Below are positions 31,320 through 31,470 of a DNA stretch of 64,000 nt, piece by piece. The position numbers and the translations under genes were made by a program. Source of the stretch: Takakia lepidozioides (Eukaryota > Plantae > Bryophyta). Every line of letters begins with the position of its first letter. Within the stretch, counting starts at the first letter, position 1. The notes under the pieces are model-generated. The model saw only the letters and a list, made by a program, of their open reading frames with translations. It had not been told where the DNA came from and searched no databases. Where the stretch lies: NCBI GenBank assembly GCA_030704615.1, contig CM060732.1, positions 50,096,001 through 50,160,000 of the forward strand, written 5' to 3'.

Positions 31320-31470
31320 CTACATATGTCCAAGGCATCGTGGACACAACCATTCTCCACTAGGAACCTCCTCAAGTGGCGGTGTCAAGCATCTCATGTG
31401 CCACCCCCTTGAGCATTTGTCACACACCAACATGGTCGCGGCACCACCAGCATGCAACGCAACCCTGTAG
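31320..31470 (-). pseudogene. PHD finger at the integrase C-terminus
   Basis: LRCML..[small deletion]..[37 protein letters not shown], a C4HC3 pattern with the second Cys deleted. Confidence 0.85.

Follow-up and report, generated by a model that had tools for sequence, protein, structure and literature searches.

A decayed Gypsy-type retrotransposon at the locus

The window (the whole stretch of DNA that was analysed, 64,000 nucleotides of Takakia lepidozioides contig CM060732.1) holds a whole, decayed retrotransposon of the Gypsy-DNMT3 type on its minus strand, 13,112 bp long with TG...CA ends (30523–43634) and delimited by its termini, 4-bp flanks, domain matches and a step in contig depth at the left end. 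Matches obtained by tblastn with relatives and by Pfam profiles run, in the minus direction, gag-protease-DNMT3-like and then RT-RNase H-integrase-PHD. Gag with zinc knuckles (minus strand, as are all domains below; 38134–41074) is interrupted by a 1.2-kb CACTA-like insert at 39419–40618, evident from a joint skipping 39418–40619; this insert has a CACTA end and many subterminal repeats. An aspartic protease with the motif LLDSGA follows (37500–37900; Pfam Asp_protease_2, E = 0.015, and tblastn), then a broken DNMT3-like C5 methyltransferase domain (36250–37150; tblastn with PF00145 relatives), and a conserved TAG at 35812–35814, likely read through, separates this ORF1 (gag-PR-DNMT) from ORF2. 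ORF2 starts with the reverse transcriptase (34945–35811; Pfam RVT_1, E = 2.2e-33) and continues with RNase H (33038–34870; Pfam RT_RNaseH, E = 5e-22), itself interrupted by a 1.4-kb insert at 33241–34650 (joint skipping 33240–34651), and with the integrase zinc-binding domain and DDE core, which contain frameshifts and stops (31793–32640; Pfam rve, E = 2.5e-07, and tblastn). The C-terminal SH3/Tudor-like barrel and linker of the integrase (31457–31792) were placed by opposite-strand tblastn, contig joints and a model of the intact relative L003; about 250 bp of this tail (31541–31786) form a private inversion, detected by opposite-strand tblastn and contig joints. The barrel before the PHD is presumably the usual integrase SH3-like tail. 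Both inserts and the inversion are each bridged by contigs of other copies. With stops and frameshifts throughout, the window element is a dead copy.

Summed contig depth over the element ranges from 1e5 to 5e5, versus 51 on the unique flank; the family is therefore very repetitive, and depth is not to be read as copy number. Of two runs searched for expression, the first, presumed to be RNA, yielded short fragments and a single contig of 1.2 kb with about 80% similarity, which does not reach the PHD, and the second yielded nothing; they speak neither for nor against expression. The CpG observed/expected ratio in the element (0.41–0.60) is no lower than that of a host ORF (0.54) and thus gives no sign of self-methylation.

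A coiled-coil host gene ends about 1.3 kb from the element's left end, unique DNA lies some 0.4 kb away from that end, and two or more of the inserts nearby are later landings inside the element. The location in a transposon cluster, which the initial annotation had cited in support of chromatin targeting, is for these reasons a weak argument. To the right of the copy, another Ty3-type element (gag, protease and part of RT; 44700–46810) and an integrase tail that finishes in a chromodomain-like part (55890–56492) were recognised by eye, and minus-strand ORFs at 49442–52127 look like the remains of a Mutator-type transposase that carried a SWIM-like finger. Fragments of the Gypsy-DNMT3 family (5' region, gag start) occur in opposite orientation at 48865–49002 and 54926–55088. 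In the coiled-coil host gene, one exon end lies within an 88-bp tandem duplication (27421–27602).

The PHD finger of the window copy

The last domain of ORF2 is a PHD finger (31323–31456, minus strand), which comes after the integrase and was delimited by Pfam PF00628, a three-frame view and the loose ends of sister copies. Its profile match (E = 5.6e-11; 42.7 bits, against a curated cut-off of 24) covers only positions 11–47 of 47. The C-terminal three quarters of the finger are encoded at 31323–31451 in a frame that ends at 31323 and is closed by the stop codon at 31320–31322. Cys1 (31454–31456), preceded by the residues G-L-R, stands in a different frame, and Cys2 is missing owing to a short deletion near 31449–31455, where the frame is shifted. 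Contigs of sister copies assembled from host-labelled DNA runs diverge from the window sequence there (loose ends at 31449 and 31455), which marks the break as specific to the window copy. What had been described as a C4HC3 finger is thus a genuine PHD finger that is broken in this copy: its identity stands, but the eight ligands do not share a single frame. The glycine noted at the W-x-H cage position, two residues before the zinc-binding His, is present in the window reading, and the finger does occupy the position of a chromodomain, behind the SH3/Tudor-like barrel at the end of the integrase.

Relatives and distribution of the PHD and DNMT domains

Among the matches listed, a PHD (PF00628) follows the integrase in 30 of 120 long RT relatives. 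A tree of 80 RT rows with a thinned outgroup places the 31 PHD-bearing RTs tested, the DNMT-bearing rows and the window on one side of a 100/97 branch, with the chromodomain/SH3 rows apart from them. The RTs nearest to that of the window come from Calypogeia and Marchantia (81% to P0020), and named members of the family occur in Klebsormidium, Coleochaete (a transcriptome assembly), Marchantia, Calypogeia and Sphagnum. A scan of viral contigs gave 32 pattern matches, none confirmed, and no relative. One protein (P0125, in the cluster of P0005) is entered at NCBI under an uncultured cyanobacterium; the DNA is probably that of a plant or alga that ended up in a metagenome bin.

Co-occurrence of PHD and DNMT across related elements, a check that the initial annotation had itself put forward, was found in 33 of the 38 informative loci; three loci carried the DNMT only and two the PHD only. 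Informative loci are those with enough flank on both sides among 80 metagenome loci, which were drawn from about ten assemblies and cannot count as independent. The pairing of PHD and DNMT is the rule in what is an old, partly described family.

Likened by description, the window copy belongs to the Gypsy-DNMT3 kind (KnitGypsy-Dnmt3) already described from Klebsormidium. It has the PR-RT-RH-INT order with a DDE integrase, the repeat arrangement A-coding-B-A-B and, in decayed form, an intronless DNMT3-like domain in the polyprotein. An identity as a chromovirus was rejected, the element having a PHD in place of a chromodomain and an RT apart from the chromodomain rows. DIRS and Ngaro elements use a tyrosine recombinase and are not known to make an ordinary target duplication; that identity was rejected in view of the DDE integrase and 4-bp target duplications. 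The REXdb lineages Phygy and Selgy were also considered for assignment and not adopted; the available text of the REXdb paper does not mention a PHD.

Permuted repeats and a palindromic junction at the element ends

The 5' end of the element is repeat A1, of which 72 bp remain (43563–43634, minus strand) and are identical to 30904–30975. The 3' part comprises repeat B1 (30978–31064, minus strand), with a G-tract ahead of it at about 31066–31074 that is likely the polypurine tract, repeat A2 (30610–30975, minus strand) and, at the 3' end, repeat B2 (30523–30609, minus strand; 95% identity to B1). B1 and A2 meet in a near-palindromic junction (CA-GC-TG) with a 2-bp spacer at 30976–30977, and the element is flanked by the target-site duplication TGGT (left copy 30519–30522, right copy 43635–43638). 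A1 is identical to A2 despite its length of only 72 bp, and the two B copies differ by 5%. Behind A1, 1.5 kb (42084–43562) have about ten times lower contig depth than the remaining element; this part may be a replaced 5' region or another insert.

The full A1...B1-A2-B2 pattern was recovered in the window and in 7 of the 26 loci with long flanks. The 4-bp target duplication is exact in six of these eight elements (five identified by script, L011 by reading) and has one mismatch in the other two. A CA-NN-TG junction between B1 and A2, allowing at most one mismatch, was present in 26 of 49 loci versus 74 of 2478 background windows, with about three of the 26 matches at odd places and possibly due to chance. 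In 9 of the 10 rows shown a G-tract stands before B1; inspection by eye of the sequence after A1 revealed no evident tRNA primer site. Because of the permuted repeats, the palindromic junction, the G-tract and the lack of an evident tRNA site, it is likely that reverse transcription makes the B-A repeats and, likewise, that integration opens a circle at the junction within one repeat. If the junction were cut in a staggered manner behind each CA, the overhangs would be 2 bases long, as at processed retroviral ends. Our literature search found no paper on circle-junction cleavage in retrotransposons, and among the papers matched for split direct repeats with Gypsy none was titled on a DDE element.

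Putative histone-contact residues of the finger

We compared the PHD fingers of 31 family members (30 assigned by precomputed Pfam label, plus ORF2 of L003). Zinc ligands 1–7 are invariant in all 31, and the last ligand is Cys in 26 and His in 5. At the cage position two residues before the zinc-binding His, Gly occurs in 26, Ala in 4 and Pro in 1; Trp occurs in none, which bears out the earlier view that the finger is not of the H3K4me3-cage type. An aromatic cage in the pre-PHD barrel, suggested by Tudor-PHD fold matches, was set aside by eye. When the window was mapped onto ATXR5 by alignment, its D, P and G fell on Asp41, Pro60 and Gly62, and the equivalents of these contacts are widely kept in the family: the Asp after Cys3 that contacts R2 in 28 of 31, and the Pro60 and Gly62 positions of the loop that holds A1 in 30 and 27, respectively. 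The residue before Cys3 (Leu39 equivalent) is bulky (L, V, M or I) in every member.

Other acidic positions are not kept. The second R2 acid (equivalent to ATXR5 Asp44 and UHRF1 D337) is present in 1 of 31 and is Ser in the window. In AIRE and BHC80 the acid that faces K4 lies two residues before Cys1; this position is acidic in none of the 31, and an acid anywhere from −4 to −2 is found in 11. An acid in the three positions before β1, where BAZ2A has its wall, occurs in 5 of 31, the placement of these columns being approximate. The finger had been compared with the AIRE/BAZ type, a likeness that these positions do not sustain; the ATXR5 mode fits better. ATXR5 holds K4 by backbone carbonyls alone and uses Asp41, Pro60 and Gly62 (PMC5499861), the K4-facing acid of AIRE and BHC80 is named in PMC3214078, and BAZ2A is a helical-H3 reader with an acidic wall just before β1 (PMC5415848).

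The best solved-structure matches of the PHD are CHD4, PHF12, BHC80, ATXR5, KDM5 and similar fingers. A model of the integrase tail of L003 (mean pLDDT 79.5, pTM 0.38) consists of a helix, a five-stranded barrel and the PHD, and its PHD superimposes with an rmsd of 1.4–1.6 on BHC80 and 1.4 on ATXR5 (identity 40–48% in the fold matches). Pairwise dN/dS of the PHD was 0.12–0.80 in 16 of 21 pairs, those in which it was estimable, from 7 of 50 loci picked for an intact open frame. The H3-contact positions are kept from Klebsormidium and Coleochaete to bryophytes, and neighbouring surface positions vary.

Given the absence of the cage Trp in all 31 members and the retention of ATXR5-type contacts to A1 and R2, the family PHD is likely a reader of unmodified H3 resembling that of ATXR5. 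Since the second R2 acid is kept in only one member and the AIRE-type K4 acid in none, binding may be weak or, as in UHRF1, blind to K4 methylation. This bears on the strongest alternative to a steering role, a general nucleosome anchor in which the PHD would hold A1-R2 of H3 at any K4 state and would boost the efficiency of integration into chromatin but not direct it. Such an anchor would agree with the retention of the R2 Asp (28 of 31) and of the A1 loop next to the loss of every K4-facing acid, with the UHRF1 PHD, whose binding drops by only 3-fold on K4me3 (PMC3214078), and with the distance of the window copy from its host gene, about 1.3 kb. However, ATXR5 discriminates against K4me3 without a K4-facing acid (PMC5499861), and the bulky residue before Cys3 is present in all 31 fingers. 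We regard the anchor as possible but unlikely, and a finger that prefers unmodified H3K4 as the better reading of the conserved residues.

Arrangement of the DNMT and PHD domains

The intact relative L003 encodes ORF1, gag-protease-DNMT of 1369 aa, and ORF2, RT-RNase H-integrase-PHD of 1047 aa, in the same frame and separated by one TAG (5083–5085 of L003), which is its sole break; ORF1 ends about 100 aa past the DNMT. L003 ORF1 matches PF00145 with E = 1.8e-13, and the best solved-structure matches of its DNMT domain are DNMT3A, B and C, with DNMT3A on top (E = 5.7e-08). The DNMT3-like domain reported for the same element is therefore real; in the window copy stops and frameshifts disrupt it, and His-Cys stands in place of the catalytic Pro-Cys. 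The dN of the DNMT is about 0.5 versus a saturated dS.

All 17 near-branch rows, picked by eye from 76, have a stop at the boundary of ORF1 and ORF2 (TAG in 13, TAA in 4), and in 14 of them CAR follows. Stop contexts were scanned with the strict read-through hexamer, which was present in 5 of 76 segments, showing no enrichment over background (4.8%), and a literature search found no paper that connects this strict motif with retrotransposons. We consider it likely, from the conservation of the stop and its context, that the boundary is a programmed read-through site. In most of the loci L019–L080 the boundary stop is absent, and P0018, P0026 and P0240 carry DNMT and RT in one ORF. Among 45 DNMT relatives, 33 are protease-DNMT proteins that stop a short way past the DNMT and have no RT, a share that is favoured by the restriction of the search to proteins of at most 2000 aa. 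In another eight (P0228, P0229, P0230, P0231, P0234, P0237, P0238 and P0242) the DNMT follows RNase H and/or lies directly before the integrase, and the five of the eight that have an RT, one of them from the green alga Hariotina reticulata, group within the PHD clade on a 100/99 branch. Since the DNMT of this sister branch lies directly before integrase-PHD, a DNMT-integrase-PHD chain is possible there. One further protein, P0241, has a DNMT3-like domain, zinc knuckle, GAG-pre-integrase, integrase and retroviral SH3, and looks like a Copia-type element with a related DNMT.

The initial annotation had likened the PHD and DNMT to the ADD-plus-catalytic logic of DNMT3. The ADD of DNMT3 adjoins the catalytic domain on one chain and docks on it. 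In L003 the two domains are in different ORFs, kept apart by the conserved stop and by RT, RNase H and integrase over a length of about 1,000 residues, which makes the analogy weak here; coupling of the ADD kind is unlikely in the branch of the window and may occur in the sister branch. Had such coupling evolved, the PHD would read H3K4me0 and position or activate the DNMT3-like enzyme that the element encodes, and new insertions or the DNA flanking them would be methylated on the spot. Several observations agree with it, namely the joint occurrence in 33 of 38 informative loci, the DNMT3-like nature of the enzyme and its dN of about 0.5 at a saturated dS, and the eight of 45 relatives in which the DNMT lies past RNase H and/or just ahead of the integrase; the two proteins might also come together in the pre-integration complex. 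Against these must be set the intervening stop and Pol domains in the window's branch, the movement of the DNMT within a family whose PHD stays on the integrase, and the nature of the PHD, a classical C4HC3 finger and not an ADD module; in addition, the Klebsormidium DNMT domain was without activity in yeast, a result described as inconclusive by its authors (PMC5890265). Taken together, we find this explanation quite unlikely.

A proposed role in integration

Ty3-type elements are known to cleave Pol into RT and integrase. Stop read-through would yield a minority of Gag-Pol, from which the protease of the element would leave the PHD on mature integrase, and the DNMT would be made mostly from ORF1 and would likely act on cDNA inside the particle. 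As read-through and Pol cleavage would leave the PHD on the integrase and most DNMT without a PHD, the simplest role for the finger is a chromodomain-like tether, and it is more likely that it tethers the integrase in this way than that it guides the DNMT. In the reading that we favour, with modest confidence, the PHD of a working copy would bind the free N-terminus of H3 lacking K4me3, through the Asp after Cys3, the P-x-G loop and the bulky residue before Cys3 and with the cage Trp missing, and, separately from the DNMT, would hold the integration complex on chromatin outside promoters. The benefit would be that active promoters are avoided, as with a chromodomain but by reversed logic.

A more far-reaching version would have a DDE clade spread across the green lineage that integrates circles by the staggered CA-GC-TG cut, with the PHD guiding them to H3K4-unmethylated nucleosomes and the DNMT3 brought along, so that copies would arrive methylated; we hold it to be highly unlikely, and if it were true, reader, writer and integrase would be genuinely fused in the sister branch, whose DNMT immediately precedes integrase-PHD. 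Least probable is a PHD that binds another host factor, DNA or the unusual end junction of the element itself: the permuted ends and palindromic junction of the clade may require extra parts and some plant PHD-like domains are reported to bind no H3 (PMC9640981), but from Klebsormidium and Coleochaete to bryophytes conservation falls on the H3-contact positions and not on the surface next to them.

The locus is an ordinary dead copy, and it is the family that offers a test of whether retrotransposon PHDs steer insertion as chromodomains do and of what captured DNMT3 domains are for. It provides a natural comparison among a DNMT in ORF1 behind a stop, a DNMT continuous with RT and, in the sister branch, a DNMT next to integrase-PHD. 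For Marchantia, home of relatives, genetics and chromatin maps exist.

Comparison with known systems

The closest described element is KnitGypsy-Dnmt3 of Klebsormidium nitens, a 'streptophyte Gypsy-DNMT3' (de Mendoza 2018, PMC5890265; bioRxiv 10.64898/2026.05.21.726589), which shares with the window a Gypsy-type RT-RNase H-integrase, a DNMT3-like domain and DIRS-like A-coding-B-A-B repeats (PMC5890265); the order of the repeats was already given in the 2018 legend. The Klebsormidium proteins P0037 and P0049, which carry the PHD, belong to the same RT clade as the window. In KnitGypsy-Dnmt3 the DNMT is placed in the Pol ORF, whereas in the window a stop lies between DNMT and RT, and the bryophyte copies, target duplications and junction palindrome found here for the window family are not mentioned for KnitGypsy-Dnmt3 in the available text (PMC5890265). 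No PHD on Gypsy-DNMT3 integrases was found in the literature searched, which had most subscription journals outside it; the main text and supplement files searched of PMC5890265 do not mention one, and its Figure 4c may draw one.

PHDs have been reported to be common in retroelements. The Chlamydomonas Gypsy element Gypsy-7a_cRei bears a PHD and inserts into intergenic sequence 2.6 times more than by chance, which speaks for the tether, and REM1 is another PHD-bearing Gypsy of Chlamydomonas (PMC9940879). As in the window, the PHD of Gypsy-7a_cRei is an accessory domain of a Gypsy polyprotein, and it was proposed to limit harmful insertions (PMC9940879); unlike the window, neither element is credited with a DNMT in the available text, the likeness being one of description (PMC9940879).

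Among fingers of known structure, those of ATXR5, BHC80, AIRE, BAZ2A and UHRF1 share with the family the lack of a cage Trp, the Asp after Cys3 and a P-x-G-x-W loop (PMC5499861, PMC3214078, PMC5415848). Three acidic features of these references are not conserved in the family, namely the second Asp that contacts R2, the K4 acid of AIRE and BHC80, and the acidic wall of BAZ2A.

Chromoviruses likewise carry a chromatin reader behind the integrase that is assumed to give targeting (Neumann 2019, PMC6317226), but this reader is a chromodomain, not a PHD, and the RT of the window's clade is separate from the chromodomain rows. EpiLTRs, like the window, combine a reader and a DNA-methyl writer in one retrotransposon; their reader, unlike that of the window, is a chromodomain, and their writers are an adenine methylase and a DNMT4-related enzyme of separate origin (bioRxiv 10.64898/2026.05.21.726589).
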